A stretch of DNA of 64,000 nt from Hormiphora californensis (Eukaryota; Animalia; Ctenophora). Below, piece by piece: positions 7,203 to 59,234 of this stretch (the stretch's first letter is position 1; every line of letters starts with the position of its first letter). The notes beneath the pieces were generated by a model, which did no database searches, was not told where the DNA came from, and saw nothing but the letters and a program-made list of their open reading frames with translations. The stretch lies in NCBI GenBank assembly GCA_020137815.1, contig CM035359.1, positions 6,200,001 through 6,264,000 on the forward strand, in the 5' to 3' direction. A program made the translations under genes and the position numbers.

Positions 7203-8783
7203 TCTCACACAACAGACCAACTAAATATACAGTTTTGGAGTGAAATCATTCGGTCAAAACACTATACTAGGGAGAGGGAGAGAAAGAGAGAGAGAAAGAT
7301 CAGGGACACAGTTGATTGTTTGATGTTGTAAATGTGCATGCATATCTGTGGGCGTCTGTGTGTGTTTGTCTGTCTGTGTGTTTGTCCGTCTGTGTGTGTG
7401 CCACAAAATTAATATATCCGCTTTTGCTCCAATTTGCACAGTGTGCTATTTATGGTTTCTTGAACCTTCATCACACCGCTCTCTCACACACTAATATGAA
7501 AACACGGCACATTTTATTTATTTTTGCTACATATAGAAAATATCTTGTCAGTGTTATATATCTAGGGGCAGTGTGTTACAAAATGTTAGATAGTGTGTTG
7601 CATGTTCTCTTTTGGTTTTATTTAAACATAATTTGTTGCCCCAGCCCCAAAAAAGAACTTGAGTTATTCATGTTTCCCGTGTTCGTATCGCAATATGAAG
7701 AGTACAGGCACTTTTTATTAAATTTTGAACATAAATGTGAATGAGATGCTATAATCCTCCACAAGGGCGTGGGGAGAGAGAGAGAGAGGGTCGAGCCTAT
7801 CAATGGCCCTCAAGTCAAAAAAGGGACAGTTTTCTGTTCATCCTTTTAGAAGGAATAAGTAAGGGAAGCCATGATGTAACGGCACCACAGTCGGTACTAA
7901 TTAGGAATCCAGATATACACACTCACATGACCACGTAGCCACTCCAGCCGATATTTTACACGCACGCATTACGGGAATATTGATGGAGGGCGCGGAACTG
8001 TTCTTGTGAGGGGAGGAGAAAGTGTGCGCGTAGTGCAGGCCATGTAGCAGTGTGCGCGCAGCAATGACGTCACAAGGTGAGATGAGCAATTACAGTTGCA
8101 CTTGCAGCAACACTGAACTGCAGCGGCGGAATATTGCTGCTGCATCGGCTGCATACACCAGGTTGTTAGGCCTCGATGTATAATACACATTTGCATGACC
8201 TGGAATTCAACCTCAATTTTGCAGCTAGATTCCGCTGTGTTATATGAACCATGGCCATGATAGCTGTCTGGCGCCGCCAAACAGTACCTGGGTTAGCCTT
8301 GCCGTTATAGCCCTACTTTACCTTCTCATTACAGAGATTACAGAGAATAAAAACCAGTTGTGTCGTTGATCGGGCCATTAAAATTGGCAATAAATAGAAA
8401 CAAACAAACAATACAACAAAACGCATTTACACGCGATTTCCTACTACACACTACCATCAACTATCTCTCTCACACACACACACTCTTACTCTCTGTCTCT
8501 CTCTCTACACTCTCCTCTCTCACAGTATCTATCATACATACCGAAAATCGTACCCACACGGAAAGCAATAATTCTCCCGTAAAATAAACCCGGGTATCCG
8601 GATATAGAAACATATCAAAATATTGTTCAATTTCTCCTTTCACTCATCACCTCGCCTTAACCCGCCTGGCGCTTAACAATCTTCCCGCCCTGAATCTCTG
8701 AATATCAAATTAAAAACAACTAAATGTGTCTATTCAGGCGAAATACCTCCCCCGTCTCTCCATTAGCATTAACAGTTAAAGGA

Positions 8784-11700
8784 TCATACGTGACGCTCTT
8801 TGCCTTCTTCGGGTCCCCGGTAAGAACGGGCAAAATGCCAAGTTTCCAGTCCCATTTTGTTGTCGTGGCCTTCGTCAACCTTGTATAACCTGGTGAGGAG
8901 GATGGGGTTACTAATAATCGGCACTGTCTTATTGCATTCAAACTGTCTGGTGCGACCTGAGTCCTGAGAAAAACCATTTGACCAAGTATTTGAAAACCCA
9001 ATTGTCTCAACTTAGTTGTCCCTAAAACATCCCTAAAACTGGACTTACCCCCTTGTCTTTGTTGCGTCGTTTGAAGACAAAGCAGGCAATTAGTAGGATA
9101 ATTAGTAGGATAACAACGACAATTATAACGATAATTATAGGCAGGTTCTTGTTCTTGTTAACTACCACTGGTTCCTGGAGTAAAGAGGGGGATTGATTAA
9201 ACTTCACAGAACAATAACAAGTAATGGAAGTTATAGTAGAATCGCCCATCTGTGGTGTAATATCCCACTTATCCAATTCTTAGATTTAAGCCCATCTGTG
9301 GTGTAATCGTAACTATTGGGATGTGGAATTTCCACTTTACTTATCCATTTCTTTGTCTTATTACCGTGATAGGTGGTTGGGTGGTTTTGGGTGGTGTAGT
9401 GGGTGGTTTGGTAGTCACAATATCAACTCCGCTCCAATCGAAAGATTCCACGGATAGGCAGCCATCGTCAGATATTCCCTCCATTATAATGGTACCACGG
9501 CGCGGTGCTGCATTGGTTGCCACCCCAACAATATCGTCCAGATTAAATGTTACATCTGAGGGAGGGGGAATTAGATTTGGGTCAACAACACACTTTCATT
9601 TTAGAGAAACTCGAAGTAAACAGTGAAATGTGAGAAATATCTAAAACTTGATACAGTCGGACCCCGATTTAGTGGCCCCCGATTTAGTGGCACCCCGATT
9701 TAGTGGCAGGATATTTTCCCCCGATACCTATATGAAATTAACATTATTTGACCCCGATTTAGTGGCACCCCGATTTAGTGGCAGGATTTTTTTCCCGAGG
9801 ATGCCACTAAATCGGGGTCCGACTGTATAATATATTAACGGGATATTTACCTGCCATACATCCTGAGAAGACATCGTCTACGGAGATGTAGACACCCATT
9901 ATGTACTTCTGAGGGGAATCAAACCACAGCTCCTCTCCTGAAAATGAAGATTGGTTTGTGACAATCTCGGAGGAACAAAAGGAGTTGTTCTCATGGTACT
10001 GACCCCATTATTCAACAATAAAGAAGGATGGGGTTGTAACCGGGAGTTAGTGATGAGTTGTTAGTGAGAAAGAGAGAAAAGTAGATAAAATTTGAATCAC
10101 ATTAGAATGCCAAAAGAAGAATACCAGACTGATTAAAGAAAGCCAAATGCTCACCAATGGTAGAATTGATCTTGTGGAAGTAGTGTGGTTGTTCGACTCC
10201 GTTAATTATCACCAGGACTCTCCTGTTCTTTCGTAGTACGTTTATAGAGTTGCTCTTACCAATCTGTAAAGGGGGATGCAGGTTAGTAATGAGGGGGGGG
10301 GGGCACATTTAAACAGGGGGATGTTGTTGAGTAAGGGGGATGAGGGCTAGGGGTACATATTTATTTTCATTTAGTCAAATAAGTACCCAACAAATTCCGT
10401 CATTCCAGATATATCATTCAGTAAACACAATAATATTCCAATAACCCTTCTCTACCTGCATCACACACACCATCAATGACGTCACATATTTTACCTCGAT
10501 AGGAGTATCTGGAAAAGTGAGATGGATCTTCTCAAGGGTATCAACTCCAAGGGTCAGCTGCATAGTTAGGGATACAATTCCATTCACTAATTTCAGATCC
10601 CAATAGTTTTCCATCTCAGTGGTTTTACCGCCTGATACCCGGAGTAACCTGAAGAGAAAGGGGGATTAGAAGACATTTGTTAGGGGATTCAGTGCTAGAA
10701 ATAACTTGGATTAATTGGATTGGATTAATTTGGATTCTTTGTTAGAAATTGTAGCAACATTTAAAGTATTAACGATGATAACATAACTAATGAATGTTTG
10801 GTTTGGTTTGGGCCGCCAACCAACCAAACCAAACCAAACCCAAACCCAAACTAATGAATGTTAACTTACTTGGCAGACAATGTATCAGGTTTGAAGGTCA
10901 TCGTCAGCTTGTCTGCCAGGGACGGTCTGGATCTGCTCAGCTCGTATTGGAGTCCAGAGGATGTTCCAAACGAGGCCGAGGGAGCTGAGATGAGAGGACA
11001 GTGTTAGAGAGAGGGATGGAGGGAGTGGGTAACATTTAAATTGGAATATTATTGATTGGTAGAACATTTAGAGATCAAAACATGTAAATTTGATTAGCAA
11101 TTGGATGTCCTAAAAACATGAAAATTTAAAATGCTGAATCTTCAAGCGAGAGTGATTGGAACATAATAACAGGAACAGAATCCATCAGATTGAGAACAGA
11201 GGTTGGATCAATTGGGGGACATGGAAATTATTATTGGTTAGAACGGATATTGGGTGTCTTACGGCAGTATGGGACATAACAAGGGGACCGATGGTAAGTG
11301 CAGCCATACGGAGGCTTTTCCATACAATACGAGCCAGCTGGGTGTGGGGGCTGGGTTAGGGTAACCATGGTAACCATAGTAGGTGTGGGGCTGGGTTAGA
11401 GTAACCATAGGAGGTGTGGGGCGGGGTTAGGGTAACCATGGTAACCATGGTATGTGGCTTGGTAATGAAATTACCTCTCCGCAATATAATAACAGGGGTG
11501 ACTTCGTAACCAAGGTGTGAGGCTGGTTTAGGGTAACAATGGTAACAATGGTAACCATGGTAACCATAGAACAAGAAATAGTAACGCAAGAATATAAAGG
11601 ATTGTTTGAGACTGGTGAAGTTCAAAAGTAGGAAGGAGCAGATACAGAAAGTATAACAGCTGAAGCTGTGACAAAACAAAAACAGAAGTGTTTCGAGCAA

Positions 11701-14700
11701 AAGGAGCACTTACCACATTGAGGAATTTCGCAGGTATCCTGCCCATCTGAGCAATCTGAGTCGGTAATACACCAGGGTCCACTCTCACTCATGTCCGGGT
11801 TCCGGCAGTAATTCTCCCTGAGATCTGCGTACGAGTATACCTGTACGAGAGAGAGGGCAATTAATATAGGAGTCTATCTAGGGAGTAGGAGTGCCGGGTA
11901 GTTAGCACAGACGTTGGGAAATGGTTCATGTTGGGGGTTAGATAAGTAGTAGTACACCTGTTTGTAGAAGATGGGGTGGTTGGCAGATGAGGACATTGGG
12001 GACATTGGGGGTGTATTGCAGTGGTAGGGGGTAAAGTGATCTGTTGTAAGGTGGTTTTAGTAGAAATATATCACATACATACCTCTGGGTAAAAGTGGTG
12101 TTGAACTTTATCTTGGTCAGACCAGGGCAGACATGCACATCCAGATGCAGAGGTGGACTGACTACCCTCGTAGTTCAACCAGCTGCTGTACGTGGGCTTG
12201 TGTCGGCAAACAACCGCTGTGAGGGAGAGAGTGGTTAGGCGATAGTGATTAAGATAGGGTGGTTAAGAGAGAGAGAGAGTGGTTAGGCGAGGGTGGTTAG
12301 GAGAGGGTGGTTAGGATAGAAGAGAGGTAGACTAGATTAAGGAGCGACAAATATAAAACTAAGGCGAATATTTTACTTTTGATAGCTCCAAAATGAACTA
12401 TATTTAGTTGACACACTCACCAGGTGCTCTGTTATCCTCAGGAACAGATTGTGGTTCACAATACTTATTAGAATGGTCAGGTCGGTCTACCCGCATGTTC
12501 CAGTTGCGTACCTTCTGACAGAAAGACTGTTCCTCGATATTAGGGCACTTGTTCATGAAGCAGAAGTTGGGGTCCATTCTGGAGGATATTAATGATAGAA
12601 ATTAGAGTGTGAAATAATGGGTGGTGACATTGTATTGTTCATACTATTATAGGTGCAACAGCACAATGGTGACACTAATTTCTTAAAATAGCACACCCTA
12701 GACCTTAGTTACCCGGTCGACCTTAGCGCGTGCTGGCTAGGGGTAACTTCGTAACCAACCCTAGACCCTTGTGCTGTTGCACCTCCCCCACGCCCCATAA
12801 AAAATAATAGTATGAACAATACAACTTGACCCTAGTGGTGGCTGTGGACAGCTTGTAGTTGGGGGTAACACAGTTATTGGGCAACAGCATCAATATATTG
12901 AATATATTCTTATCAGGAACCGACCGAAACAAGTAAACAACCAAACAGAACTCGTTATTTAGGTCACGTGACTGGTTATCAGCCAATCAGGGACCGGTAT
13001 TTCCTAATTCTTACATTTTCATTTTCTGCGCCTCAGCGATGAGTTTAAAGAGGGTATCGGTAGCGACATCCTCCTTCATTGAGTCAAGTCCAAGGAAACA
13101 GATACCCTGTGTCTGTCTGATGTTCTCCATGTAGCCACCCTGGAGGATTGAGTAGGGGTTAGGGGTTGAGTTGCCTTGCTGGACTCCCTCTCAACAGACC
13201 CCCATTGTTGTAAAGGAGGGTTAACATTTCTTATAGCTTTTCAGTTAAAACATGATCACATTCAATTACCTTGATGCCCCAGTTAAAACATGATCACATT
13301 CAATTACCTTGATGCCCCAGTTAAAACATGTGATCACATTCAATTACCTTGATGCCCCAGTTAAAACATGTGATCACATTCAATTACCTTGATGCCCCAA
13401 CCCCTTCCTTCGTACACAATCCCAGTTTTAGCAATGTAAAAGTTACACAGGACATCACTCTCTCCAGCAGCACTGGCAGTCGCCTTCAGCTCCTTCAATT
13501 TATCCCTGGGAAAATGATGATGTGTTAGTTTCGCACGATCATCGTGAACTGATCAATGCAGCTAATAATCTAAAAACACACAACGAACAAAGTGACGTCA
13601 TGTGTAACAACGTGTAAACTGCCACACAAAGAACCTACCGGCAGTCTTTGTCGTTGACACAGTACCCTACAAACCACAAAACTAACAATGTGACGTCAAT
13701 ATAACGTCACAAGTAACCATGTGAAATTGTCAGAACTTACCGGCAGTCCTTGTCGTTGACACAGTACCCATCAGGAACATAATCAACAAAGAAAGTAGCA
13801 ACAGGGAACCCTCCCTCAATAAACTCCTTCTTGTTTAGAGGCACCACCGTGTCCCATTTCTTCTTGGGCACTATTATCAGACCTTGTCGTGGATCTGTAT
13901 AGGGAGGAGTTAGGGTATTAGTTGGGCACTATTATCAGACCTTGTCGCGGATCTGTAGCAAGGAGTTAGGTTTGGGGAAATGGATTATGTTCCAAACAAC
14001 CCTTACCGATAATCTTTGTAATGGATCTACCATCCCCATTCCCCACCCACTAGAATCCCCAACCCCCCCAATCAAATGTAAACCACTTACCAACACACTG
14101 GGGAGGGTTAAAAGTGACATCAGACCACAGCCCACTGGCCTCACAAGTCCTGGTACTTTCTCCAATCAGTTCATAACCATTGGTACACGCATACGACGCC
14201 TGGCGATAGAGAGGGGTGGTGGGGAGTTAGATATAAAGCATGAAACACAAATAAAATGTCTGATCTCGGCGTCACGAAATCACGCTACCTAGGTGCAAGT
14301 AGTGTAATAGTAGTTGATTACTTACCGTGGTTCCAAAGTCGTATGTTGTGTAGGAAACCTCCCCGTTGCTGGGACCATCCAGTTTCCCGCACCCACAGGT
14401 CCGGTACACAAACTTGGGCTTAACTTCAGCTGTGGGGGATATATTGTGTTAGTTAGCCGCTAAATGTGGGGGAGATATCGTGTTAGTTAGCCGCTAAATT
14501 ACATTGCTAGAGCATCTCTCTCCATGCCCCGGTTTGAACAAACGACCGTTAAATATCACACCACACGTAGTCAACAATCACTAGTTTTAGCGGCTAATAC
14601 TACTCGACAACTACTACTACTACTACTGGGCTCCCTTCTAAAGAGAGAAATATAACTCACGGAGTGGTTCCCAGGTAGCTAGTCGAGTGTACCCCCCAGG

Positions 14701-15636
14701 ACACCCTGGACCTTGTAGCGCATCTTGCTGGTTAGAGTTCAGATCACAGGTGAAAAGGAGACAGAAATCAGAGACTATCTCACCGTTCTGGTAACCCTGT
14801 GGAGAGGTGTGTGGTTAGAGAGGTGTGGTTAGAGAGATGTGGTTAGAGAGAAGTGGTTATGTAACTTGGGAGGGGAGAGATGTTTGGGTGGTTGCAACAT
14901 TTGACGCCCCCTGGCATGACCCTACTAAAATAGCTTCACACTTACTGATTTGATAAGATCCCTAATCGCATCCTCAGCACCAGTAGACATTCCATCAGCA
15001 TAGTTACCTAGGTAACCAACTCCAAGGGAAAACTCGCCGAATCTGTCAGAGAAGTCACCCTGAAAACAAGAGTTGTTAGTGGTGATGAAGAAGAAGATGA
15101 TTGGTAGCAACCAAATTATCCCTAGTATTTCACGCGGCCTACCATCTTCATATAGATCCAAGAGTAAAAGTCATTTATCCACATACCTGTAGGGACCAGC
15201 CACGTCCCTCGAATATAGTTCCCTCGGCAGAAACATAGAAATTGTAGATCAGATCGGAGTAGCCAGACTTCTGATTCTCGGTTTGGATTTGCCGTAACAT
15301 CAGTTTACATGATTCGTCAGCCGAACACGTTCCCCCTCCATCCCCGATTACTACATCTGTTATTCGTGTCATGGTGGGGATGGCACCTTTACTGGATTCG
15401 GAACCCCAGTCATATCTGCAAGAGGAGGGAGAGGTTCGTGGTGTGGAATGTAATTCTTGTCAGTTTTCTAGCAGCCAAACTCTCCGATCACATTCTGTTT
15501 CTAAATGCATCTGAATCATCTATCAAGTCTCTAAAATGTATGAGTTCCCTCTCTTTTTACTGTACCTGTCTATGATGGTCAGGGATGAGGCAATACCGAG
15601 TAGCAATACCAGGCTCTGTAGACTTCTGAGAATCAT
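8784..15636 (-). CDS. Type I membrane receptor: SP-PGRP-Sushi-PGRP-Kringle-LamG-stalk-TM-neurexin-like tail (about 20 exons)
   Basis: Exons are phase-compatible. SP MILRSLQSLVLLLGIASS (15636-15566). PGRP1: IIDRYDWG...SDLIYNFYVSAEGTIFEGRGW...SLGVGYLGNY...GCPG...TWEP (15415-14661). Sushi: CGKLDGPSNGEVSY...ASYACTNGYELIGESTRTCEASGLWS (14430-14090). PGRP2: IVPKKKW...DVLCNFYIAKTGIVYEGRGW...GICFLG (13895-12420). Kringle: YEGSQSTSASGCACLPW...ENYCRNPDMSESGPWC (12215-11714). LamG-like: ASFG...KLTMTFKP...WDLKLVNG...FSGCMADVTFN (10985-9460). Then TTKPPTTPPKTT stalk, TM LPIIIVIIVVVILLIILLIACFVF, and a tail ending KERHV*. Confidence 0.85.
9654..9825. mobile_element. Tc1/mariner-type MITE (family B)
   Basis: TIR CAGTCGGACCCCGATTTAGTGGC, flanked by TA on both sides, with internal CCCGATTTAGTGG repeats. 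Second copy at 59786-59955. Confidence 0.85.
12914..13010. mobile_element. MITE family A, truncated copy
   Basis: Same sequence in reverse orientation, cut off next to a splice donor of the PGRP gene. Confidence 0.8.
13242..13398 (-). repeat. 38-40-bp tandem repeat spanning a splice donor (4 copies)
   Basis: GGGGCATCAAG|GTAATTGAATGTGATCA...TTTTAACT repeated. Confidence 0.9.
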
Positions 15637-17534: not shown

Positions 17535-18031
17535 GGGGGGGAGCTAGTTAATTAGAAGGATGGCGTCATGATTGTTCCCTACAGAACCATTCTGTCACCG
17601 GGTGGTACAACCCTGCCACCACCCTACCCTGGCTCTCTCTCCAGCCTCTCTCTCTCTCTCTCTCTTTCTATCCACCCCTCAGTCCTGACTCTCCCCTACC
17701 CTGGCTCTCCCTCCAGCCCCTCTCTCTCTTCTTCTATCCACCCCTCAGTCCTGACTCTCCCCTACCCTGGCTCTCCCTCCAGCCCCTCTCTCTTCTTCTA
17801 TCCACCCCTCAGTCCTGACTCTCCTCCCACGCTGGTGACAGCTAAACAAGCATGAGGGAGACACTGCAGGACACACCCAGTCAGTATAATAGTAGTACGA
17901 TGGGGTCATTGAAATTAGTCAGAATAGCCTGTCAGGGTGGACCAAGCACTTGCGGGTTTGGCAGACAAGACACAACGATGTATCGAGGGATGGGGGCTAG
18001 AGAATCGTTTGGCAATCACCATGGGTTAAAA

Positions 18032-19359
18032 CGGGAAACACCGAATTTCGGTTTGGTTCGGTTCGGTTCGGAAAATTTGGTGTTTTTTGGGGGTTTGGTT
18101 TCGGTTCGGTTTGGTAGGGAAATTTTTGGGGCCCAACCACCCAAATTTTTTTTGGGCAAAAAAATGGGCCCGAAATCCCGGGGGGGTTTTTCACAAAATT
18201 TTTCAATTATTTTACGAAAATTGTTGGATTTTAAATTTAATTTCGCCGTATTAAACCCTTTCGAATCGGGGGTGCTATGTGGGAAAAGTTTTTCCCATTA
18301 CGGTTCGATATGGATTGATTTTTATACCTGACTTCCCTCGAATCGTGTCCCATGAGGGGTTAACAAATTCGAAAATTTTTTTTTTCAAAAATTTATGGGG
18401 AGCACCGATCAAGGTGTTTTTGAATCTTTTCTCTGAAATTTTGTAAAAAAATTTTTGGAAAAAATTTCAAATCAATTTTGGGAAAAATTTTCATTCAATT
18501 TTTCTCAACGTGTTTTGAACGGGATTTCTAAGCGGGAGTGATGTTGCTTTATTGTGGGGCCGGATGTTTTGCTGAACGTGATCCCCCCCTCAAACTAATT
18601 GGAAGTTTGGGGGAAAAATTCATGTTTCAATAAATCCTCTAATTAGCGGAACACTGCCGCAAGCATCACCCTTCGCAACACACGTACGGCAAAAATTTAC
18701 ATAAATTTTTTTTTCCGAAATTGCTTTGAAAAATTTTACAAAGTTTTTTCACAAAATTAAATTTTCTCTAAAAATTTATGGAGAGCATCGTCAAGGTTTG
18801 AGAATCTTACCTGAAAATTTTTTGGAAATTTTTTTTTTTGAAAAAAAAAATTTTTGGTAAAACGATTCTGTTTTTAAATCGACAATGCTAAACGGATATG
18901 TTGGTAATTCGTGGTCCGAGATGGATTGTGCTGATACGTGATCCCCCATCAAATCTAATTAGGAAATTTAGAGAGACACGATTCATGGTTCGTTTAATCC
19001 TGCTAATTAGCAATACCATTCCCGTATAGCATTGCCGATTCGCAACACGATTCGTACCGCAAAAATTGACATAGAAAAATTTACGATAAAATTGACTTTG
19101 AAAATTTTTTCACAAAATTGACTTTGAAATTTTTTCAAACATTTTTTAACAAAATTTCAGAGAATGATTCTCAATACCTTGATCGGTGCTCTCCATGACT
19201 TTTTAGAGAAACATTTATATAGAAAAAGTTTTGTATGGTTCGGTTCGGTTCGGTTACCGAAATTCGGTTCGGTTCGGTTCGGTTCGGTTCGGTAAAAAAG
19301 TTTTTCAAATTCGGTTCGGTTCGGTTCGGTGGAAAAAAACCCGGTTCGGTCGTTTCCTG
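18032..19359. mobile_element. Non-autonomous hAT-like element with (TTCGG)n subterminal arrays
   Basis: Right TIR TTCGGTCGTTTCCTG is related to MITE A. The left end is noisy. Both flanks read GTTAAAA(A)C. Internal duplicated block of about 360 bp. Confidence 0.65.
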
Positions 19360-20389
19360 GTTAAAAACAAGGACCAACAATTCGTGAGCCCTGGATTGAA
19401 AAGGTAGAATTCTAACTCATACTGTGTTCTAATACTAACATCAAATTTAATTAAAAGAGGACATGTTCTAGATCTCACGTGACTACTTGATTAAGATTGG
19501 GTAGACTTGTGTGAAAACAGGGGGAATTAAATAGGGGCCCCGGGTCAGATGTACAGTGTGGATTGCCATGGGGGCTGCTGCTGTTAGACACTAATTGAAA
19601 CGGTAGTAGGCGACCTGCTGCACACAGGTGGCTCACGCATCCAAACTACTAAATCTGATCGCAAGAAAATGATCCTATCTGACCAAGAAACAGTAAACTT
19701 TTCCGAAATGAAACAGGTTATTTAAGAGGGCTCCTGGGCTGTGGAGTATAACAAGTTCTGAACTGGAATAAAAGCGTTACAGTTGGAAGTAGAGAGGTGG
19801 AACAAGAATCGGATCAGCATTTCCGGAAGCTATCAACTGAGAGATAGAAAGATAGAGGGAGGGAGAGATGGAGAGAGAGAAAGTGAGGCTGAGAGATCTA
19901 AGGCGGAAGGTAATAAACCGTTTGACCACTGACTGATCGTTGGCCACAACAATGAGTAGCGACACAAAAAGAAAAAAGGAAAAACAAAAAAGGGAGAGGG
20001 AGAGAACGAGGAGAAAAAATGGAGAGAGAGAGGGAGAGAGAGAGCGAGAGGGCCGAGCGAGATAGAGAGATGAGAGAGAGCGAGAGATAGAGAGAGAGCG
20101 GAAGAGAGAGAGCTATCGTGCAGCGTCATAGATCTTATATCATCTCTCTCTATATACTATAGAGATTATATCCTATATATATCTCTCTATCTCTCTCTCT
20201 ATAGCTCCTATCTCTCTCTCTCTTCTCTTCTCTCTCTCTCTCTCTCTCTCCTCTCTCTCCTCGCATACCACAGTTCACACTGATCACGTGACAAGCTTAC
20301 TGTAAACCGCACCGTTACTACTTGGTCACGTGACTGATTGGGGGACGTGCAAGGCATTAGCACGCTGCTGGCACACGATTCACACAGAA

Positions 20390-24839: not shown

Positions 24840-26846
24840 CTCAGCATTATATCAGTACTATAGAATCATTCGATCAAAGTATACACACCACTCTCAAGCA
24901 TACTAATAATATCAGTATCTTAAATTTGAATCTAGACGCACTAGTAAAAACACGGAGCAGTAGTCAGAACAATGAGTTTTCTGACCGTGACAATGTCGAT
25001 CTGATCACAATCTCGCGAGACTAAACAGGGGTGCAGACAACGAATAAGGGCGAGGGTATAATGGCCAAACAATAAACTGTCTCATACTGCAGCAGTACGT
25101 CACAATGGAGTTACAATATCATTCTTATCTAAGACAAATTGATAACACAGGGTGCCCCCCTGTACCAAGAAAGGGGAGGGGTGTGATGATGTAATTCTGG
25201 GTGCTATGACGTCACCCTGGGTGCTATTACGTCACCAAGTGTATCACCATGGTGATATCATCAGAATTCAGAGCATCAAAGTAGTCAGCAAGGATACTGA
25301 TTGGCAACCCAAAAGGTCGATGATAATCAATACTGCAATGCTACAAGTGACTGCAAAATATTTCTTCAAAAAGCACGCCAACACACATCTGCTGCTACAG
25401 ATCAATAGATCGTCCAGTGTTTCCTTCACACAAAGCTACACACAGATCACGATCCATGTTCCCTACATGTGTGTTATTTGATAGGCCCGCCACCTGTGCC
25501 ATGAGTTAACCCAGTTAGTGAGGGAGAGAGAGACGTTGTAACCTGATCCAAACACCACCAATCAGAACTTCTCGTTGAGATCACGTGATAAAATGCAGCC
25601 CTCTGATTGGCTGGTCAAAGCTCACTGGCAGCTAATCAGGAACCTGGATTTGGAGCACTTGACAACAACAGCCAATAAGAAGACTTGAATCTGATCACGT
25701 GACGGTGGTTAGCCAATGGGAAGGCTGCATTTTGGCCACATGAAAGATAGCGGGTTTGAATGCTGAGAATGGGATGGGTAATTGGGTGTGAAGGATTCAG
25801 GGGGGACCGCACTGGACCAGGAATAGAAATGATGGACCCGAGTTATTTTACCAGCACTGTAAAATGACTCCAGACTCATTTATTTACCGCGTTGGATATG
25901 ATACTACTGGTAAAAACAGGACTGAGGAGTGAGGACGCAATATGGCTTTAGGAAAGTAAATGAGAGTTTGAAATCTCTACCACTCATTCCGGAATGAACC
26001 AAAAATTAAGGAGTTTAATCGATTTGGAATCATTCTGCCAACGGAATTATAGAATCGGGGTAAATAAATTATAGAATCGGGGTCTTAAATCGTAGAGGGA
26101 AAGACTATGGTAGATCTCGAATGACAAATGAATAACGGTATTTCTAAAAAATTTTAAAAAACCCCCCTTAAAAGGAAAAGGGGGTTTTCTGTTGAAAATT
26201 TTTAAAATAAAAAAAATTAAAAAAGAAAAAAATTTTTAAGTTTGAAAAAAGAAAAAATTTATAAGCTTAAAAGGAAGTTTTTTTGAAAACGGAAAGGGGA
26301 CGGTGGGTAAAAAAAAAAGAAACAAAAAATTAAAAAGGCGGCCGGGGGAAAAGGGGTTTGGCCCAATTGCGGAATCCCCCCCCCCCGGAAAAACATTTCG
26401 GGGGTTTAAACCCTGGAAATGGTGGGTCTGACATGACTTTCTTTCTCCCCCCTAGGATCCACGGGGGGTTTTTTGGGGGTTTTTAAAAAGAAAAAATATT
26501 ACCCCACATAAGTTTCCCCTTTTCAAGAAAATGATTTTAAGCAGTTTTTAAAAAAAAAAGGGGGGGGGGAAAAAAACGGGGAAAAACCCTTCTTTTTTTT
26601 TCTTCTTTTCAATCCCCTTTTTTTCCCCCCCCCTTTTTAATAAAAAATTTCCGGGGGCCCCGGGAAATTATTTTTTCCCCCAAAAAAGGGGGTGGGGGGG
26701 GAGAAAAAGGGGGGGAAAAAAACCCCAGAATTTTGGAAAAAAAGGGGTAATTTTTTGGGGGGCCCTGCCCCCTTTGGGTCCCCGGGGGGGGGTCTTAAAA
26801 TTTAAAAGGGGGATGGTTCTCCTGGGGGTTCCCCCATAAAATACCT

Positions 26847-26903
<57 letters not shown>

Positions 26904-26906
26904 AAA

Positions 26907-26976
<70 letters not shown>

Positions 26977-28364
26977 TTTTTTTTTTTTTTTTTTCCCCCC
27001 CCCCCCCCCCCCGGGGGCGGGATTGTAAAAAACCCCCTCCCGTTTTAAGGCCCCCCCCAAAATTTTTAAAGGGGGGGGGGGGGGGGGGGGGAGAGGGGGG
27101 AAAGGGGGGAGAGAGGGAACCCCTGGTATGAAATAACGTGAAAAAGGGCTCAACCATTTAATGGGTTCGGGCATGGTAAATTCAAGCTTGGAAGAAAACA
27201 ATTAGAATTTTGCAAAGAGCGAAAACTCCAAAACCCCATCTCTTATCTCTTTACTCCTTACTCCCCCTTTTATCTCTATCTCTCTCCTCTTCCTTTACTT
27301 TCTTTTCTCTAAACCCTTCCTCCCTTCCCAAAACTTGTACAATCCCTATTTTTTTCATTTTAAAAAAAAAATTTAAAAAAAAATGCATAAAAATTTTTTG
27401 GGGGGGGGGGCCCCCCCGGGGGGGGGGGGGGGGGGGAGGAGAAAGGGGAGGGGGGGAAATTTTTCCTCCTTTTTTCAGTATAGGTTCCCATAATCCCCGG
27501 GGGGGGCCAGTCCAGCAGTAAGAGAACCCATAATGACCAAGTTCAAAGTTCAAACCCGGGACGCAGTGAGAGAAAGTCAAACACGAACTTTAATAAAAAG
27601 GGAAACAAGACAAAATTTAAAAGTTTCAAACATGAAGTTGACAGAATACAGAACTAAATCTAACAGGGATCTCACTAAGAGGACCATTTTTGACACACAA
27701 AGTGTCACCGATCGCGAGTGTGCTGCTGAGTGTGGGACAGTTAAAAAACTTTTAACTTCCATTAGGGGGCAGAGGGGGCTCACAAGAGAGAGGAGAGAGA
27801 GAGAGGAGGGAAAACGGGAAGAAAGACAGGGGTAAAAAGAGAGGGGGAGAGAGGGGAAATGAAAAAGAAATATCAAAAAAGGGGGCAAAAGGTAGACCGC
27901 TGGGTGCCAAAATGATAATCTACTGCACTAATCACACTAAACCCCCCGGTACCAGTGTGACACTGGTTCATTGCCCTCAGTAACATCCACCAAATCGAGA
28001 GAGAACTGTCTGGCGCCGCAAGACAGACACAAAAAAGGTTCAGAGAACAGAGAATTTAAAATAAACTAGGATGAGAGTAATTGTTGGAGCGCTAACACAG
28101 TCCAAGGTAAACATCTCATTGTGCGTACATTGACGCCCCTCTCTGAATACATCGGTTTTATAAACTTGATTGGTCACCACCCACCCTCTCTCTATTTATG
28201 TCTCTCTCTCTCTCTCTCTCTCTTCAACTCTCTCACTAACTATTTCTCAGTGAGTCTCTCTAAGATGGCTTCTCCCTCTTTATCTCTCATAGACCATTTT
28301 AATAGTGTTTATGTTGGACCTGCTAAACATCATAAACAGCTTCACCTTAGCAAAATTTATTGAG

Positions 28365-41336: not shown

Positions 41337-44300
41337 CTAATCTTCAATTTTATATATTACAGGGGTGACATCAGCAGCATCTTCAGGAGGGACATCAGCA
41401 GCATCTTCAGCAGGGACATCAGGAGGGAGATCGGGAAAATCTTCAGCAGCATCTTCAGGGGGGAGATCGGGAAAATCTTCAGGAGCGAAATCAGGAGCAT
41501 CTTCATAAGCATCATTAGAAACATCTTCAGGAGGATCTTCAGGAGCGATATTAGGCGCAACATCACGAGCGCCATCAGCATTTTGGACACGTTTAAAGTA
41601 GTTCCAAATCGTTGTTACTACACCACTGTACAAAACGGGATTCAGTACAGAATTGAGGGGGAGAATGTTAAGGGAGAAGATCTGGTACCACGGTGACATA
41701 TCCACAACCTCAGCTGTGTGGAGGACGCAGCAGATCAGGAAGGGCATCCAGCAGCAAAAGTCAGTTAGGCAGATCAAAGAGACATTGCAATTGAGCGAGT
41801 TGTCGGACGTCCTGGTACTTTGGATATGCGATCTTCTAACGAGTACTGCAATCATCCCATGGCATATCGCTACACATAAAAAACAGAGAAAATGGAAGGT
41901 GAGGTATGCCCATACGAAAAGAACTTGTGGGTCATCTGAAAGGACAAATGCCTTAAACATACACACTGGGTCGTTACCGTAGAAAGACAGCCTTTTGCCC
42001 ATTACCGGATCATAATCCTGGGAAAACATCTCAGAAATCATTACTTGATATGTGTTCCAAGACACAGTGTTGCCGGACCGACTTCGTCTGGTTTCGTGGC
42101 TTCCATGGTAACCCCGAACAATCTTCAGCAGTTGACTTTTATCCATCACTCCAAGAAATAGTGTAAAGCCTCTTTCAAAAACTAGTCCATTGACAAACCA
42201 TTCATTGAAAGTATCGAACAATGGAAAAGTAGATACTGCTAGAGATATCAATGTGACTACTGCAAGAAGTACACCTAATTGTTTCTTTAGCTTCAGAGTA
42301 ACCTTCTTTGAACGGCGGTATCGAAGGGCCATTACTGTACCATGGAGTCGGAAGCAGCTTACGAAAGCCATCACAAGGGAAGAAATAGATGACCCAACGC
42401 TATTCAAAATCCCAATAATGGTACAAGGGGCTCCACTAATCCATTCAATTTGATACTCACAGAACCCGGAACCGTGGATCCAGTGGATTGTAGTTAGGGT
42501 AAGGAGATAAACAGATGTCAGTAGATCTCCCAACGAAATCATCAGGACCATGGCTTGATTGATTAATTCGCCACTCTTTTCCGACTTCTGTTTGATGTTC
42601 CGAATAAGTCCCCCAACTCCAAAAACGAATCCTGTAGTTCCCATGACAAAGGCAACTCCCAAAATTGCATCAGCGCTAACGGCTTTCCTCCTACAACTCT
42701 CATTACATTCATCAGAGAAGTCTTTGCAGTCAATCTTTCCATCACACTTCTGACTCAAAGCCAAGAACCCAGACTTATCAGAACACTGGAAGTTGTTCAT
42801 ACATTCCTCCTCATCGGACCCGTCTCCACAGTCATCGACAAGATCACACACCTTCTCAAACAGGACGCAGTATGTGTTTTTACAAACAAAAAAGTTGTTT
42901 TGGAACCGTTCGCGAGACTTTTGTACAATGGTAATTGAGCCAAGCTCGAAGTTGAGAGAATAAAAGGTGTTTCTGAGGTTGCTACAAGTGTTATGAAGGA
43001 CCGGTCTTTTCAAGGGACACGGTATGTTGTAACAAAGACCTAAACAGCTGTAAAACACATATGCTTCACCGTACAGGTACCTACAATCACGTTCCGTAGT
43101 TGGAAATACTAACTTGGTTGTAAAGTTTTTACCAAAGAACAGATGAAAGGGATGATGGAACGTTTTAGATTGACAAGTTTGGTCTGTTAGAAAAAGGATA
43201 GACTGAAGGCCTTTTGTACAAACTGAACTCCTGAGTTTTATTCCTACTGATAGGCTGCTGCTTAGCATCTTTTTGGATATCTGTGGCCTGCTTTTAGCCA
43301 TGCGGCACACTTCTTCGTCACAGTTTGAGGGAAAGGAACATAAAAGGGTGGCTTCTAAAAATTGTCCTATGTTATTTTTGCAGAGGAAGACATTGGTACA
43401 TTTATTAGTCGAGTATCTAATTGTCCTCCTGATGCCTTTGCCGCACGTTTGCCAGTTAGCCTTTTCATCTATCCCGTCAAGGCAGTCTACCTCTCCATCC
43501 TGGACCCAGTCCACTGGAATCCTAAGAAGACCCTGATTTTGGCTAAAACTACGAACACACGATCGTTGGGTGAGCCTAAGACACGTCGCCTTCTGCTCAT
43601 CCGCACCCATAGCACAGTCATCTTGCCCATTGCATAACTGATGCTTATGAATGGTGCAATACCGGTTAATCGTTGGACACTTTTTGTGCATATCATCATC
43701 ACATAACATTGAATTCTCCCAACAGAGAACATAAATGGAAACTGTAGAGAGATATCCGCCGATAAGGCACGAACCGGCAATCTTAGCTGGATCCGAACAG
43801 TTTGTCTGGTCTAAACCGTCATAACAATAAGATACGCCACCATACAGCCCATTATCAAACACATTTTTAACTGAGCGTGTTAAAGGAATGAAGCAACGTG
43901 ATGCGTTATGAAGCGGAAAATCAGTACAAGTGTTATTCCTTGTTCTGTACAGTTCAAGTAAATCGTTGAAGGGAGTAAAGACATAAACATCTTTTTGCTT
44001 AGCCACAGCCCCATAATTATATCCGTCGCAAGAACTTTCATCGATACATTTCAACATAGATGCTTCCATGTTTCCCTCCAGCTCCACTTCATCACAACGA
44101 CCGTCACACAATCCTCCTTCTTGAATGAAGATTGTAAAAATCTCGCCCTCAACGGTGGAGATGGTTTTTCTAAGTCGAGCATCACTAAAATCATGAGCAC
44201 CGGGACATGTTTGAAATGATGTGTGAAAACCGTACATATCCTTTTCATGTTCGTAACACAACTTCCCACACACGGGGGCCGTTTGGTAGAGTGTCGGATT

Positions 44301-46777
44301 TTGAAATAATCTTTCCACTTCCATCTTTACTAGACGTATTTTTTCACGCTGATTCCGAATCTGTCATTTATTTTGATCTACGACCACGTCATCCCCTGGA
44401 GACGCCCTCCTGAATGAATTGCTTGTGCGTCGCGTTGCAGTGCTGTCACTATGCGCTCTCTCGCCAATTAGCTGCGCTCGCAAATTTACACAACTGTGCC
44501 ACCTGAGCTGAGATGGATCTCAAAGAAGCTGCTCAGCGGTCAGAAATTTTGAGTTTAAACGCCAAGACAATTAAGATCCAATCCATCATCAATTGATCAT
44601 TTGCTAATGAATTGGACCTGTTGCTTGGTTCGTAATTCCAGGTTGAGTTTCAGGAAATATCGATATTTCCTGAAACTCAACCTGGGCTGGAATCACGAAC
44701 CAAACAACAGGAAAAAAGATCTAAAAGGAGAAATACCCAGTTAGACCATCTAATATAAAATCATTAGGGTGAGTAGGAAGTGCCCAATCTCATTCACTTT
44801 TAGCCGGGGTTATGTCTTCAACACGTGACAAATCACGTGCTTCGAGAAAGAGATTCGATATTTCGATTGTAAAAATGGTAGTTATTATCCGTTTGACAAC
44901 CTCAATGACGTTTGGCACTTTAAACGATTTTATCGGTTCTGAAAAGATCGATCCGCTCCAGCCCCACATAGTGTTGACTCAGCGAAACGTCCTCTCCCAT
45001 TTTCTTGCCGTTTCGCACGTGGATCAGCTTGCCTCCGGGTCCCCCAGACGAGTTCCCGTTGACGACGCTCTTACTCTGACTGCTCGAGCTATTAATTCGG
45101 AGCTTTTTGTCAATAATGGCGTTACAACAGTTTTAGAATTTAATATTAAAAAGTAAGTGGCCCTGAGTATTATACTTGTTCTTAAGTATATTAAATGTTC
45201 TCTACTACTCGCAACAGTTCTCTACTATTTCTCAGATTAAATTATTTCTATCCTTGTTTTTGCCCAGGGCTTTGAAGAAACTGTTTGACAATACCAAGAA
45301 AGCAAGTAAACGGTCATCGAATCAAAAAGCCAAGTTTGAATCTGAGTTACTCTGCAACATATTCATGTCTACCCACCCATTATTTGGCAAGCAAAAGGTA
45401 GATTTATTGCTGATTCTGAACAATTGTCTGTTTAGCTTAGTATGTTATCATCATATTGCAGTACAGGGTGTTCTACTGTCCTTGCGTGACCTGCGATTTT
45501 GAGTCTTGACGGGGCTCCATTAAATTGATCATATTTCATCAAAAAATAGGTCAAAATGGTTCTAACAAAAACAGTGTTGTAGATAATTTTCAGGCAAACA
45601 TTTTTCCTGACAATTCTCTAATCTCTATAGAGACATATATGTAACACTGTTTTTGTTAGATTAACCATTTTGACCTATTTTTCGAAGAGATATGATTAAT
45701 TTAATGGAGCCCAGTCATGAATCGTGTAGGAAAACTACAACGTCGCATGGATCAGGCAGAGGGACTTTTATAGAACATAGAGACAATTTTAACCTATTTA
45801 TGTGTAACATGCGTGACAACATGTATAATTTACAACCTGTTTTATTAAACAGATTACAGTTTTTAAAGGTCCCCCCAAACTACTATGTCCCTTGCTGCGC
45901 GCGACCGGATTTTAGACGGTCATAGCTCCACCCCCTGATAAGATAGAGACTTGAAATTTGTTTTGTGAGGAGATCATGTCGAGTTCTTCCTACAAAACAA
46001 ATTTCAAGTCTCTATCTCATCAGGGAGTGGAGTTATGACCGTGGGAAATTTTACAAAACCCGAGTGAGGGACATAGTAGTTTGGGGTGTACTTTAGCTTC
46101 TGTGAAGTTTGCTTGAGAGATGAGATTGAGATATTACTTTATTTTATGCCACCAAGTTACAAGTGTTTGTCCAGAGTTCTCGAAATTACCGAACTGAGAA
46201 GACAGCAACTCCGTTGAGATCCATCTCAGGTGACACAGCTGTGTGTAAATTTGCGAGCGCAGCTAATTGGCGAGAGAGAGCGCATAGTGACAGCACTGCA
46301 ACGCGACGCACAAGCAATTCATTCAGGAGGGCGTCTCCAGGGGAAGACGTGGTCGTAGATCAAAATAAATGACAGATTCGGAATCAGCGTGAAAAAATAC
46401 GTCTAGTAAAGATGGAAGTGGAAAGATTATTTCAAAATCCGACACTCTACCGTTTGGAAGAGGTTTTTAGCGGGATCGTACAAGGGCATATTACTGTCAC
46501 TTCCGCAAGCCTGATACTGGATAGAATCGTTAGGGCACAAATTCGTTACATAGAGTTTTATTCTTCTCGTGACGGTATCAATACTAAACTTTTTGTAGTA
46601 CACGGCGGAAGAGTTAAGACATTTCATCAAAAAGCCATCGTAGGAGATAAATGCTTTGTCTTGGCATGACCTCACCAAAAACCCATTGTCGACTGCTATC
46701 GGACACCCACCATCGTTATCACCGGAAATTCCACTAGTGACCTCAACTAGGTAACACACGAAAACAAAGAGAGTCAT
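41337..46777 (-). pseudogene. Intronless LDLa-repeat rhodopsin-class GPCR (GRL101/RXFP-like, no LRRs), interrupted by a hAT element
   Basis: 5' part 46777-46450 (signal-like MTLFVFVCYLV...NLCPND...ACG). 3' part 44278-41337 has LDLa motifs (CDLVDDCGDGSDEEEC, CDGKIDCKDFSDEC) and a 7TM (TDFCCWMP, LPLNSVLNPVLY). Removing 44287-46449 plus one TSD copy restores ...KNLFQTAPVCG... in frame (about 1089 aa). Confidence 0.88.
44287..46449 (+). mobile_element. Internally deleted hAT (hATm-like) DNA transposon with nested MITEs
   Basis: About 230-bp TIRs starting TAGAGTGTCGG. Perfect 8-bp TSD CCGTTTGG (44279-44286 and 46450-46457). A two-exon internal fragment (44875-45152 and 45268-45398: LTQRNVLSHFL...IKKALKKLFDNTKKASKRS) resembles hATm transposase N-termini as I recall them. 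Nested inverted-repeat elements at about 45512-45711 and 45870-46090. Confidence 0.88.
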
Positions 46778-52474: not shown

Positions 52475-55400
52475 TCATTTTAAACTGCCCCGACCGGGAT
52501 CTTTCCTGGCCCACTTCGGCTGCGGTCTTCTCTGCGTCTGTACTGAGCGTCTCACAGCACCGGGCCCTCAACTGAAAGAGAGAGTTGAGCTGTGAAGTTC
52601 GACACTGGTTGTCAATCTGACAGATATTTGTACAGTTGCAACTCCGACGAAGATCTGTCTAAGAAGACAGTATAAAAACACGAAGGCCTTGTCGAGTAAC
52701 ACACATACCTGTATAATCCTATCAGTCAGTGGTTTTAGTGCAGGTTGCCTTGCTATACAGCTAGACAGGGCATTCCAGGCAATATCAACTGCGTCAGAAT
52801 ACAGCAGGGGATTGAGGGATGAGTTGATAGGAAGGAGGATTACTGCTGCATAGGGGTACATGGCGGTGGCGTCAATTATCTCAGCAAAGTGGAGTAGGGA
52901 CGCTGTACACACTGGTACCTGTGGGAGAGGGGTAGTGGTACTGTAATGGACATAGGAAACTGGTGATACTGGTATAATGGGAATGGGTTTTAGATTGAAC
53001 ACTTTTTATTCAATTAACAAACAACATGCAGGAGCCAGGACACACAATGTACTAACCCAACAGCAGAAGTCAGCGACAATAAGTCGGGCAATCTTTTTCT
53101 GAAGGACGGCGTTCATCTTACTTTTCTTTGTTTTGCAACTCTTTCTCGCTGATTTCTGAAATGAATATGAGTAAATATTCGATTTAAAATTGTTTATGCT
53201 CATAACTGAGTCTGACAGTTGATAGATTTACTAGTTACCATGGTTACCACCATACAGTTGCCATGGTAACCATCATTTAGTTGCCACCACTAGTTACCAT
53301 GGTTACCTTGTAAGTGTAAATGTAGCTGGCGAGGATGTACACAAAGGTTAGGAAATCGAAGAGGATGATAAAAAATGGAAAACTCCAGTTAAGGTCTCGT
53401 GTTGTGGTGAACAACTTTGGAAGACACACACCGTGCTTTGAATAGTAACTCATTGGCCTGAAAAGTGGTAACTGGTAGTCATGGTTACTAAATCATCTAC
53501 ATAAACAGATGTCCTACTAGTTACCACCTGGTTACCATGGTTACCAGAGCTGGGAGGGGGAGGGATTACTTCTACATACTAATTACCACCTGGTTACCTG
53601 GGAGGTAATACAAACACTGGTTACCATAGTTACCTGGGAGGGAATACAAACACTGGTTACCATGGTTACCTGGGAGGGGATACAAACACTGGTCACCATG
53701 GTTACCTGGGAGGGGATACAAAAACTGGTTACCATGGTTACCTGGGAGGGGATACAAACACTGGTTACCATGGTTACCTGGGAGGGGATACAAACACTGG
53801 TTACCATGGTTACCTGGGAGGGAATACAAACACTGGTTACCATGGTTACCTGGGAGGGAATACAAACACTGGTTACCATGGTTACCTGGGAGGGGATACA
53901 AACACTGGTTACGATGGTTACCTGGGAGGGAATACAAACACTGGTTACCATAGTTACCTGGGAGGGAATACAAACACTGGTTACCATGGTTACCTGGGAG
54001 GGAATACAAACACTGGTTACCATGGTTACCTGGGAGGGGATACAAACACTGGTTACCATGGTTACCTGGGAGGGAATACAAACACTGGTTACCATGGTTA
54101 CCTGGGAGGGGATACAAACACTGGTTACCATGGTTACCTGGGAGGGGATACAAACACTGGTTACGATGGTTACCTGGGAGGGAATACAAACACTGGTTAC
54201 CATAGTTACCTGGGAGGGAATACAAACACTGGTTACCATGGTTACCTGGGAGGGGATACAAACACTGGTTACCATGGTTACCTGGGAGGGAATACAAACA
54301 CTGGTTACCATGGTTACCTGGGAGGGGATACAAACACTGGTTACCATGGTTACCTGGGAGGGAATACAAACACTGGTTACCATGGTTACCTGGGAGGGAA
54401 TACAAACACTGGTTATCATGGTTACCTGGGAGGGAATACAAACACTGGTTACCATGGTTACCTGGGAGGGAATACAAACACTGGTTACCATGGTTACCTG
54501 GGAGGGGTTCGTGTCTTTGGCCACACCTCCATGGTCAGTGTTATTAATTCCTCCCAGCTAGTGTGAACCGTTATGTTAGATCTGTAGTTGCTGAGAAATT
54601 CTACGTGGGCGTGTCGGGACCCATCCAATAAAATGGGGTTATCTGAGTAGTGGTACCTAGAGGAAGGAGGTACTTAGCCAATTGGTGCAGTGCTAGTGGT
54701 AAGTTAGCCAGAATATGAATAGATCTCAGATTCAATTTTAGCTACACCACCTGACATTGCACTACTTAGGATAGAAAATAAACCCCAAGATCAACAGCTG
54801 TATTATGTCAACGATGTTTTATGGAAACTGAGGTCTGAGAACAAGAATCCTTCTGACAATGAGAACTCACTCGTCAACAAAGTAGTCATGGAAACCAGGG
54901 TGAAGTGGTGTGAGGGCTAGAATTCCTGATACCAGCCAGGTGGTGAGGGCTATCAGACTACACACTCCAATAGCTCTGTACCTGCAATTATAATGATACG
55001 TTAACTAATTAATAATTAGCTATCAGCTAACATAGATCAGAATACAGTTTGGACAGTATCCGATGGATACAGTTTGATTGCAGTTTGGTTTCGCGGCCTT
55101 CGTTTGGTGCGCTTCGTGCGCCGGCAAGGGAGGGGTAACTTCGTTACCAAACAGTTTGGATAATGGCACATTTATCTGCATCTCTTGTTCAATGTGCCAC
55201 AGACTAACCTGGTAGTTTGGTTGTTCAAACCAAAACTTTGCACAACAGTTAATATCACACACATGTGTCACACATTATACTAACCTGGTAGTGTCTGTGG
55301 AGTGAGGTTTAACCACAATGATCATTCTATAGGTGGACAGCACTCCCAGGCTCATAACACTTGTCTGCACTGATAGAACTGATAGGACACCCAATAACTG

Positions 55401-58400: not shown

Positions 58401-58438
58401 AGCTCACGTTGGCACTCTCGTAACAATCAAATCCTACC
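52475..58438 (-). CDS. Multi-exon LDLa-repeat rhodopsin-class GPCR; 5' end not located
   Basis: Exons: CDGKQDCPNNEDERDC (58438-58296); CDGHRNCYDNSDEC...GLIWIMGLASLFGNVLV (57919-57723); NLASADFLMGVYL (57242-57107); WKLSSMCQLLGVLS (55440-55285); 54981-54871; 54656-54498; YYSKHGVCLPK (53457-53307); KIARLIVADFCCW (53155-53055); LLPINSSLNPLLYS (52918-52709); terminal exon to about 52475. Confidence 0.85.
53583..54506 (-). repeat. 36-bp minisatellite whose unit reads GT...AG (about 25 copies)
   Basis: Minus-strand unit GTAACCATGGTAACCAGTGTTTGTATTCCCTCCCAG fills most of GPCR intron 53458-54497. Confidence 0.95.
55567..55641. repeat. Perfect palindrome (37-bp arms, 1-nt spacer)
   Basis: GTGAGGGCGACCCCGCGTCAAAGAAATCTGTCTACAA-A-reverse complement. 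Confidence 0.9.
55647..56871. mobile_element. Insertion of a 505-bp tandem repeat with an inverted segment, bounded by a 13-bp direct repeat
   Basis: Unit starts at 55661 and 56166 (period 505). 56391-56860 is the reverse complement of the unit. CACTCTAGAATAT occurs at 55647-55659 and 56859-56871. Confidence 0.75.
57308..57521. mobile_element. MITE-like inverted repeat element
   Basis: About 55-bp TIRs GATTGAGCCATGGCTAGCCAGTCATGTAGC... Confidence 0.65.
57520..57659. repeat. Perfect 140-bp spacerless palindrome
   Basis: Centred on TTTAAT|ATTAAA; arms match exactly. Confidence 0.9.
58016..58245. mobile_element. MITE-like inverted repeat element
   Basis: TIR GTCGAATTTTTTATTTAAGCGACAGGCC and its complement; internal inverted repeats. 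Confidence 0.65.
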
Positions 58439-59234
58439 CTGGAAATAATGTAATGGCAATAGATGAGAAATTCAAAACAGATATATCCGCAATCCAGTTG
58501 TATCACTCTATTTTGTTTGTTTGTGTTCTGTCCCATTGGTTGTAAGCAACCAACCATAGGCAAAGAAGGGTTATAAGGGTCAGCACACACCTACACCAAA
58601 ATCAAAATTAAAAATTCTCACAGTAACAATCTTGCACACTATTTTGACGGTCGCGTTGGATGACAAAATTATTTTGTCAAAGAAAGAATTGTTGAGTTGC
58701 GTTGGGATTTATTTCCTGTTTTATTTCTACATTGTTCTGCCGGATGAGGGAAAACAGTTGAGTCGCCTGACACAGTGTCTGCGCTCCGAATAGAATAAAA
58801 ATAAAGTATGAAAAATTGAAGAAAACAGAGGCTTCACGATGGACTGTTTGGGCTGTACCAACCTAAAAACGGGGGTCATTATACCCAGCTGCTATATAAA
58901 GTTCTTGTGTCGCCACGTTCGATATATGAGTCTCAAATAGGTTGATGCAGGCGAGATAAAATCGAGTCTCACTTGACTTTAACACAAAAGATTGCTACTC
59001 CTCCGTTGCAGTCATGTGATAAAAAAAGGTCAAACTGTCAGAGCTCCTTTTAAAAGATACCATTGTTGAAGATCGTCAATCATCTACTTGTTGAACAATA
59101 ATAATATCTATGATTCGAGTTTGATTTTAACTTGCGACCCACGTTATAAATATATGCATCATATGCACCATATATATGCATCCTGAGCTCTGTGCCTCAC
59201 CAGCCCACTGTTCCATTCCTGAAGGAGAGAAGAC

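Follow-up and report, generated by a model that had tools for sequence, protein, structure and literature searches.

A conserved ctenophore gene encoding a membrane protein with two putatively non-catalytic PGRP domains and a beta-neurexin-like C-terminal half

How ctenophores detect bacteria is a question to which a conserved, spliced, cell-surface peptidoglycan-recognition protein (PGRP) would contribute a concrete gene to study. Such a gene lies on the minus strand of the window analysed here, a 64,000-nucleotide (nt) stretch of the Hormiphora californensis genome (all positions below are those of the window). An initial annotation, made from the sequence alone, had placed at 8784-15636 a chain of about 20 exons for a type I membrane receptor of bacterial cell walls with two PGRP domains, a sushi domain, a kringle and a LamG domain, probably in a ctenophore. 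The gene is real and conserved among ctenophores; its anatomy is richer than that annotation saw, with a neurexin-like anchor, and its ligand is less certain. If the receptor reading is true, the protein would be a microbe sensor in the earliest-branching animals. The gene also bears on the age of PGRPs (presence in the last common animal ancestor versus arrival by transfer), and its anchor bears on when neurexin-type PDZ tails arose.

When the proposed exon chain was spliced from the ATG at 15636, an 871-amino-acid (aa) frame without stops was obtained. The gene has 20 minus-strand exons of 71-229 nt each with GT-AG introns of 85-436 nt, and exons 1-19 (2436 nt) contain no frameshift. It is a single gene, because exons 1-19 align in unbroken order both to full-length orthologs of Bolinopsis and Mnemiopsis and to the intronless open reading frame (ORF) of a metagenome contig, L001. 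L001 (3929 nt) was the sole match in a motif scan of metagenome contigs; its 842-aa ORF holds the whole architecture, and all 18 junctions of exons 1-19 fall within the collinear alignment. The one-gene claim is thus upheld, and the PGRP and LamG-transmembrane halves are found together in the orthologs and in L001, not in separate genes. The chain of the initial annotation stands for exons 1-19 and fails in its last exon and its end at 8784. Between the H. californensis gene and L001 the proportions of synonymous and nonsynonymous differences (pS and pN) were 0.77 and 0.31 over 779 codons.

Exon 2 gave 217 matches in a phmmer scan, 150 of them listed, among them P0024, a 198-aa protein on a Joint Genome Institute (JGI) contig that is unbroken across the exon 1-4 positions. 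Queried against longer proteins, P0024 retrieved two of 1881 candidates, Bolinopsis microptera LOC134821783 and Mnemiopsis leidyi ACHWQZ_G001404; the C-terminal half as query retrieved the identical two (2 of 3169), and both carry the full architecture, in agreement with the proposed ctenophore affinity. Exon 2 alone as query yielded no longer homolog among 22 candidates, and a search for related loci with one protein query gave no match. Over residues 1-812, identity is 430/804 aligned positions (53%) to Bolinopsis and 388/778 (50%) to Mnemiopsis; PGRP domain 2 shares 98 of 159 residues with Bolinopsis, and all 32 ectodomain cysteines are common to that ortholog. A contig of run X1 (about 80% identity; its RNA origin is a guess) joins exons 8 and 9 over a GT-AG intron and lacks intron 9 as well; of the 18 differences listed, 16 fall in third codon positions. 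P0024 itself, on a contig of 1842 nt, is a spliced domain 1 ortholog that ends 12 residues past the PGRP domain; it may represent a short PGRP or isoform secreted by ctenophores, or else an artefact of read-through or of a frameshift.

The domain order is signal peptide, PGRP, sushi, PGRP, kringle, LamG, stalk and transmembrane helix, and the N-terminal signal peptide, with both PGRP domains ahead of the single transmembrane helix, agrees with the type I topology proposed earlier. Exon 1 (15566-15636) carries the start codon, the likely signal peptide (about aa 1-18; the same hydrophobic N-terminus is found in the orthologs) and the start of PGRP domain 1. Exon 5 (14326-14429) encodes a linker and the first half of the sushi/CCP domain, and exon 6 (14091-14199) its second half (Pfam Sushi, E 2.6e-5). 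The kringle is divided between exon 11 (12083-12216; Pfam E 7e-4) and exon 12 (11714-11840; E 2e-10). Exon 13 (11263-11337) is a 25-aa cassette with four cysteines, 14 of its 25 residues identical to Bolinopsis; it is present in four of seven Bolinopsis RefSeq isoforms and missing from L001 and the Mnemiopsis models. By exon, Pfam detected sushi in exon 6, kringle in exons 11 and 12, and a weak Amidase_2 in exons 2 and 8. Of the four domain models named in the initial annotation, Sushi and Kringle score above their cut-offs and LamG does so in Mnemiopsis and L001; Amidase_2 stays under its cut-off, although solved PGRPs match. Short tandem duplications at 13253-13410, 13630-13769 and 13864-13957 have placed copies of exon 7 and exon 8 splice sites within introns, where spare donors and one acceptor remain. 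Small inverted-repeat inserts resembling miniature inverted-repeat transposable elements lie at 9642-9837 (intron 17) and 12623-12831 (intron 9).

Both proposed PGRP domains match solved PGRPs in sequence (exon 2, E 3e-12; P0024, E 3e-14; L001 domain 2, E 6e-10), the best match in the PDB being amphioxus BbtPGRP3 for each, and the fold of domain 1 is supported in P0024. The AlphaFold2 model of P0024 domain 1 has a predicted local distance difference test (pLDDT) score of 81; the best 27 among the Foldseek matches listed were all PGRPs (E 1.5e-13 to 2e-9), followed by phage and bacterial amidases starting at 1e-7, and the target template modelling score was 0.75-0.87 for every listed PGRP match but one. 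The nearest Atlas clusters of this domain are eukaryotic PGRPs. A precomputed domain table gives Amidase_2 in the Mnemiopsis ortholog only.

Key residues were counted in nine ctenophore PGRP domains, five copies of domain 1 and four of domain 2. In H. californensis, the N-half of domain 1 (exon 2, 15187-15415) has Gly for the first zinc His and retains the Gly-Tyr pair, the catalytic Tyr and the Arg associated with diaminopimelic acid (DAP); the domain continues through exon 3 (14946-15059) to exon 4 (14661-14796), where the second zinc His is replaced by Thr, the CPG cysteine is retained and two more conserved cysteines are found. Domain 2 begins in exon 7 (13741-13894) with Asp for the first zinc His; exon 8 (13388-13505), whose junction with exon 9 is the one bridged by the X1 contig, has Cys for the catalytic Tyr and retains the DAP Arg, and after exon 9 (13015-13139) the domain ends in exon 10 (12421-12578), with a shortened His loop that holds no His, followed by a linker. 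Neither zinc His is present in any of the nine domains, and the CP cysteine is present in all. The catalytic Tyr is kept in two (domain 1 of H. californensis and of P0024), replaced by Cys in all four domain-2 copies and by Phe in three of the five domain-1 copies. The DAP Arg is found in six of nine (four of four domain-2, two of five domain-1 copies), and the NF...EGRGW block is intact in every domain-2 copy. The Gly-Tyr pair is found in domain 1 of H. californensis and L001 (2/9), together with the Arg only in that of H. californensis. An intron sits three codons past the EGRGW Trp in both domains, a common position that hints at internal duplication.

PMC8124813 and PMC4610682 state that amidase activity in PGRPs needs the zinc ligands His, His and Cys plus the catalytic Tyr, that PGRP-LB zinc-ligand mutants retain peptidoglycan binding while a Tyr to Phe change abolishes activity, and that the Gly-Tyr-Arg set is tied to DAP preference in BbtPGRP3. 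Because both zinc His are absent from all nine ctenophore domains, neither PGRP domain should be an amidase, and the protein is predicted to be non-catalytic. Peptidoglycan binding by the pair is plausible and not assured, because several groove residues besides the zinc His are altered.

The C-terminal half has the order LNS domain, stalk, transmembrane helix and short tail, with a neurexin-type juxtamembrane motif. The LamG/LNS domain starts in exon 14 (10870-10984) and runs through exons 15 (10495-10648), 16 (10155-10263) and 17 (9851-9937) into exon 18 (9365-9555), which also encodes the Thr/Pro stalk; exon 19 (9049-9174) encodes the transmembrane helix (about 9144-9076; hydropathy peak 4.0) and the first half of the neurexin/syndecan-type juxtamembrane motif. 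Only a single LamG and no EGF domain was found by Pfam, versus six LNS and three EGF domains in alpha-neurexin. With P0172, a Mnemiopsis fragment reaching from LamG to the end, the four best of five PDB matches were neurexin-1 (best E 0.0014), mostly through the transmembrane helix and juxtamembrane motif. The three best Atlas clusters for this half, all scoring 0.95, consist of neurexins and include two beta forms, with 176-180 features in common; the Pfam Syndecan domain reached 23.5 bits against a cut-off of 25.2. The LNS domain itself is best matched in sequence by neurexin LNS2 (E 0.03), and its model (pLDDT 47) fits LG domains generally (agrin Z 9.7, neurexin Z 8.9, SHBG tied). To judge from its sequence, the LamG-stalk-transmembrane-tail half thus resembles beta-neurexin, descent from a neurexin being a separate matter. 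The LamG-transmembrane architecture had been recognised in the initial annotation; the likeness to beta-neurexin had been missed and the tail used was wrong.

That last exon (8963-8784) was rejected, as its frame shows no likeness to the orthologs' tail. The tail of the orthologs aligns instead to 8889-8734, from an acceptor at 8889 to a stop at 8734, interrupted at three places by a single surplus base (near 8888, 8870 and 8743). Each of these bases lengthens a short homopolymer, and in a nucleotide alignment the flanking codons continue to agree with L001; the three one-base slips are probably assembly errors. The revised exon 20 (8734-8889), drawn from frameshift-aware and L001 nucleotide alignments, encodes a cytoplasmic tail whose recognisable elements are a TKWDWK block, a YDxΦ motif and an EVFA-type end. 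Use of the acceptor at 8956, which is in frame, was judged less likely, since it keeps the TKWDWK block and drops both conserved end motifs. The conserved tail of about 54 aa comprises the neurexin-type juxtamembrane motif, the TKWDWK block and the EVFA end, and YDxΦ occurs in the tails of all three lineages. Both orthologs end in EVFA, presumably a generic class II PDZ pattern, and the KE[W/Y]YV PDZ ligand is absent. Pfam found no TIR or kinase domain in the tail, and inspection by eye found no RHIM core. Elsewhere in the window, an inverted-repeat element at about 18030-19360 has a garbled-looking left copy and 11-18 homopolymer runs per 500 nt versus 1-4 elsewhere, which suggests local low-quality assembly; a comparable poly-G/poly-T patch lies at 26600-27600.

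We propose, giving it about an even chance, that the protein serves as a non-catalytic receptor that captures or takes up DAP-type (Gram-negative) peptidoglycan. The two PGRP domains without zinc ligands would bind DAP-type peptidoglycan and not cut it; because they are without the cutting residues, the protein likely grips bacteria at the surface of the cell rather than digesting them. The sushi, kringle and LamG domains would space the PGRP pair off the membrane and perhaps recruit partners. Clustering on a bacterial surface might then let the juxtamembrane motif and the EVFA end engage band-4.1/FERM and PDZ scaffolds, and the conserved YDxΦ motif might drive internalisation via endocytic adaptors, functions that we take these motifs to have. 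By this route a captured microbe would become linked, through the neurexin-like tail, to the cortical cytoskeleton and to the machinery of uptake, as expected of a capture or phagocytic receptor rather than an Imd-type signalling receptor. Only tentatively do we add that in ctenophores a PGRP pair that binds peptidoglycan may have been joined to a membrane cassette of the neurexin family, yielding a receptor that captures microbes and connects to FERM/PDZ scaffolds.

Several observations weigh against a capture receptor. Amidase_2 reaches 23.8 and 24.1 bits in the full-length orthologs versus a Pfam cut-off of 26. Val replaces the DAP Arg in lobate domain 1, and four further groove columns depart from the commonest residue in all nine domains, namely the second His of HH, the GAH His (Phe or Tyr here), the Asn and the Thr before CP. 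The bacterial-cell-wall receptor of the initial annotation keeps its PGRP homology; the loss of the zinc His and of several groove residues had been missed. The branches leading to the two PGRP domains are very long (2.4 and 3.8), in line with a change of function; in the H. californensis assembly the tail is out of frame, and the tail taken alone has no significant Pfam or PDB match; and the neurexin-like half points to adhesion equally as much as to capture.

The main rival, possible if doubtful, is an adhesion or cell-recognition protein of the neurexin family whose PGRP folds have been repurposed to bind a protein or glycan of the host. It is favoured by the beta-neurexin-like C-terminal half, by the many groove residues lost and by the conserved, alternatively spliced cassette exon immediately ahead of LamG; identities of 50-53% with 32 of 32 cysteines kept would be no less expected of an interface with a host partner than of an immune receptor. 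Against it, the DAP Arg and the NF...EGRGW block persist in all four domain-2 copies, the LamG fold match is not neurexin-specific (in a model of low pLDDT, agrin and neurexin tied), and ctenophores already have a separate, single alpha-neurexin, described in PMC11294457 as without a PDZ motif. It is unlikely that the protein acts as a decoy or co-receptor that damps or tunes another receptor in the manner of the inhibitory PGRP-LF: PGRP-LF ectodomains do turn up in both the sequence and the fold searches and the tail has no signalling domain, but PGRP-LF is not the top match, and no partner PGRP receptor was found, the domain-1 and C-terminal-half queries each giving only the two orthologs. 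Less probable again is that the three one-base insertions are true mutations and the tail has been lost, leaving a truncated receptor or an alternative tail from the acceptor at 8956 or 8963. Three frameshifts in the last 156 nt, versus none in the 2436 nt of exons 1-19, would fit such a loss, as would the in-frame acceptor at 8956 with its TKWDWK block; all three bases nevertheless extend short homopolymers between codons that match the ortholog, and the garbled, homopolymer-rich stretch at about 18000-19500 hints weakly at local assembly errors. Highly improbable is a membrane-anchored zinc amidase with altered ligands (Asp, Cys) that scavenges peptidoglycan. The CP cysteine in nine of nine domains, the Asp at the first His position of domain 2 and the Tyr in domain 1 of H. 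californensis and P0024 could be read that way, but both His are missing throughout, lobate domain 1 carries the Phe for Tyr that abolishes PGRP-LB activity, and nearby extra conserved cysteines probably hold the CP cysteine in a disulfide.

Compared with known systems, the candidate capture receptor is like Drosophila PGRP-LC and PGRP-LF in its membrane-bound PGRP fold without zinc ligands and with the DAP Arg (here in domain 2), and like PGRP-LF in having two PGRP ectodomains. PGRP-LC has type II topology; unlike PGRP-LC and PGRP-LF, the ctenophore protein has its PGRP domains at the N-terminal end behind a signal peptide, in type I topology, and also carries sushi, kringle and LamG; unlike the Imd-type PGRP-LC it has a tail of about 54 aa without RHIM and no C-terminal PGRP ectodomain. 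Arthropod signalling PGRPs require RHIM, according to PMC9835746. Amphioxus BbtPGRP3 (chitin-binding domain plus PGRP) is likewise a domain-shuffled PGRP, and its Gly-Tyr-Arg set is that of H. californensis domain 1; it differs as an active zinc amidase (His121, His230, Cys238, Tyr156) with no such membrane cassette. Beta-neurexin and the short cnidarian delta-neurexin have in common with it one LNS domain, a stalk, a transmembrane helix, a juxtamembrane motif of similar kind and a C-terminus that is hydrophobic and PDZ-type; the ctenophore protein differs in its PGRP-sushi-PGRP-kringle front, in having no EGF repeats and in ending with EVFA, not KE[W/Y]YV. LOC134821783 and ACHWQZ_G001404 show the same architecture; in their domain 1, Val stands at the position of the DAP Arg and Phe at that of the Tyr.

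The type I-like arrangement occurs in other PGRPs too: the tardigrade Paramacrobiotus PGRP-kinase proteins (XP_055344231, XP_055349571) also have PGRP N-terminal to a hydrophobic stretch (by eye) that lies between it and the kinase; unlike the ctenophore protein they carry an intracellular kinase and no sushi, kringle or LamG. Two uncharacterized Paramacrobiotus metropolitanus proteins, P0027 and P0048, have two PGRP and two kinase domains with a hydrophobic stretch after each PGRP and are candidate peptidoglycan receptor kinases; neither is mentioned in the passages of PMC7056985 consulted. The damselfly proteins P0001, P0010 and P0012 have 4-6 tandem degenerate PGRP domains and are annotated as uncharacterized, and P0002-P0008 are similar.

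As to novelty, a Pfam scan of 56 of the 150 listed exon 2 matches found none with sushi, kringle or LamG, and two were tardigrade PGRP-kinase proteins. No published description of the architecture was found in full-text searches, judged mostly by the listings, of a literature that leaves out most subscription journals. The architecture had been called undescribed; this holds for that literature and not for NCBI/UniRef, where it is already catalogued under the names uncharacterized or hypothetical only. Ctenophore PGRPs as such are not new, because Moroz et al. 2014 reportedly counted two in Pleurobrachia bachei (PMC11359984). The main text and one supplement of a Mnemiopsis immune-repertoire paper (PMC11797021) make no mention of PGRPs, and PGRPs are reported to be absent from Amphimedon and Nematostella.

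The origin of the domains was addressed in a quick IQ-TREE of 56 rows, in which domains 1 and 2 each form a clade with support of 100 on long branches within a polytomy; neither falls in the actinobacterial group (support 90), and the two were not recovered as sisters. A FastTree of 264 rows gave no more resolution. Best BLAST scores were higher to the phmmer exon 2 matches than to 120 bacterial domains for all nine ctenophore queries, with a narrow margin for domain 2, for which medians favour bacteria, in a comparison set picked with domain 1. The EGRGW hallmark is not confined to animals; PGRP-like genes with it are common in Actinomycetota, with at least 120 bacterial genome stretches matching and the 80 listed all Actinomycetota by title. 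The Actinomycetota PGRP-like amidases L002-L081 share at most about 44% of their residues with animal-type PGRP matches and are relevant to the origin of animal PGRPs.

Elsewhere in the window, long single-ORF genes for rhodopsin-type G-protein-coupled receptors with LDLa repeats lie at 41337-44363 (minus strand, 1008 aa) and 60375-63119 (plus strand, 914 aa), and fragments of similar genes were found near 46427-46777, 52568-53005 and 58246-60505.

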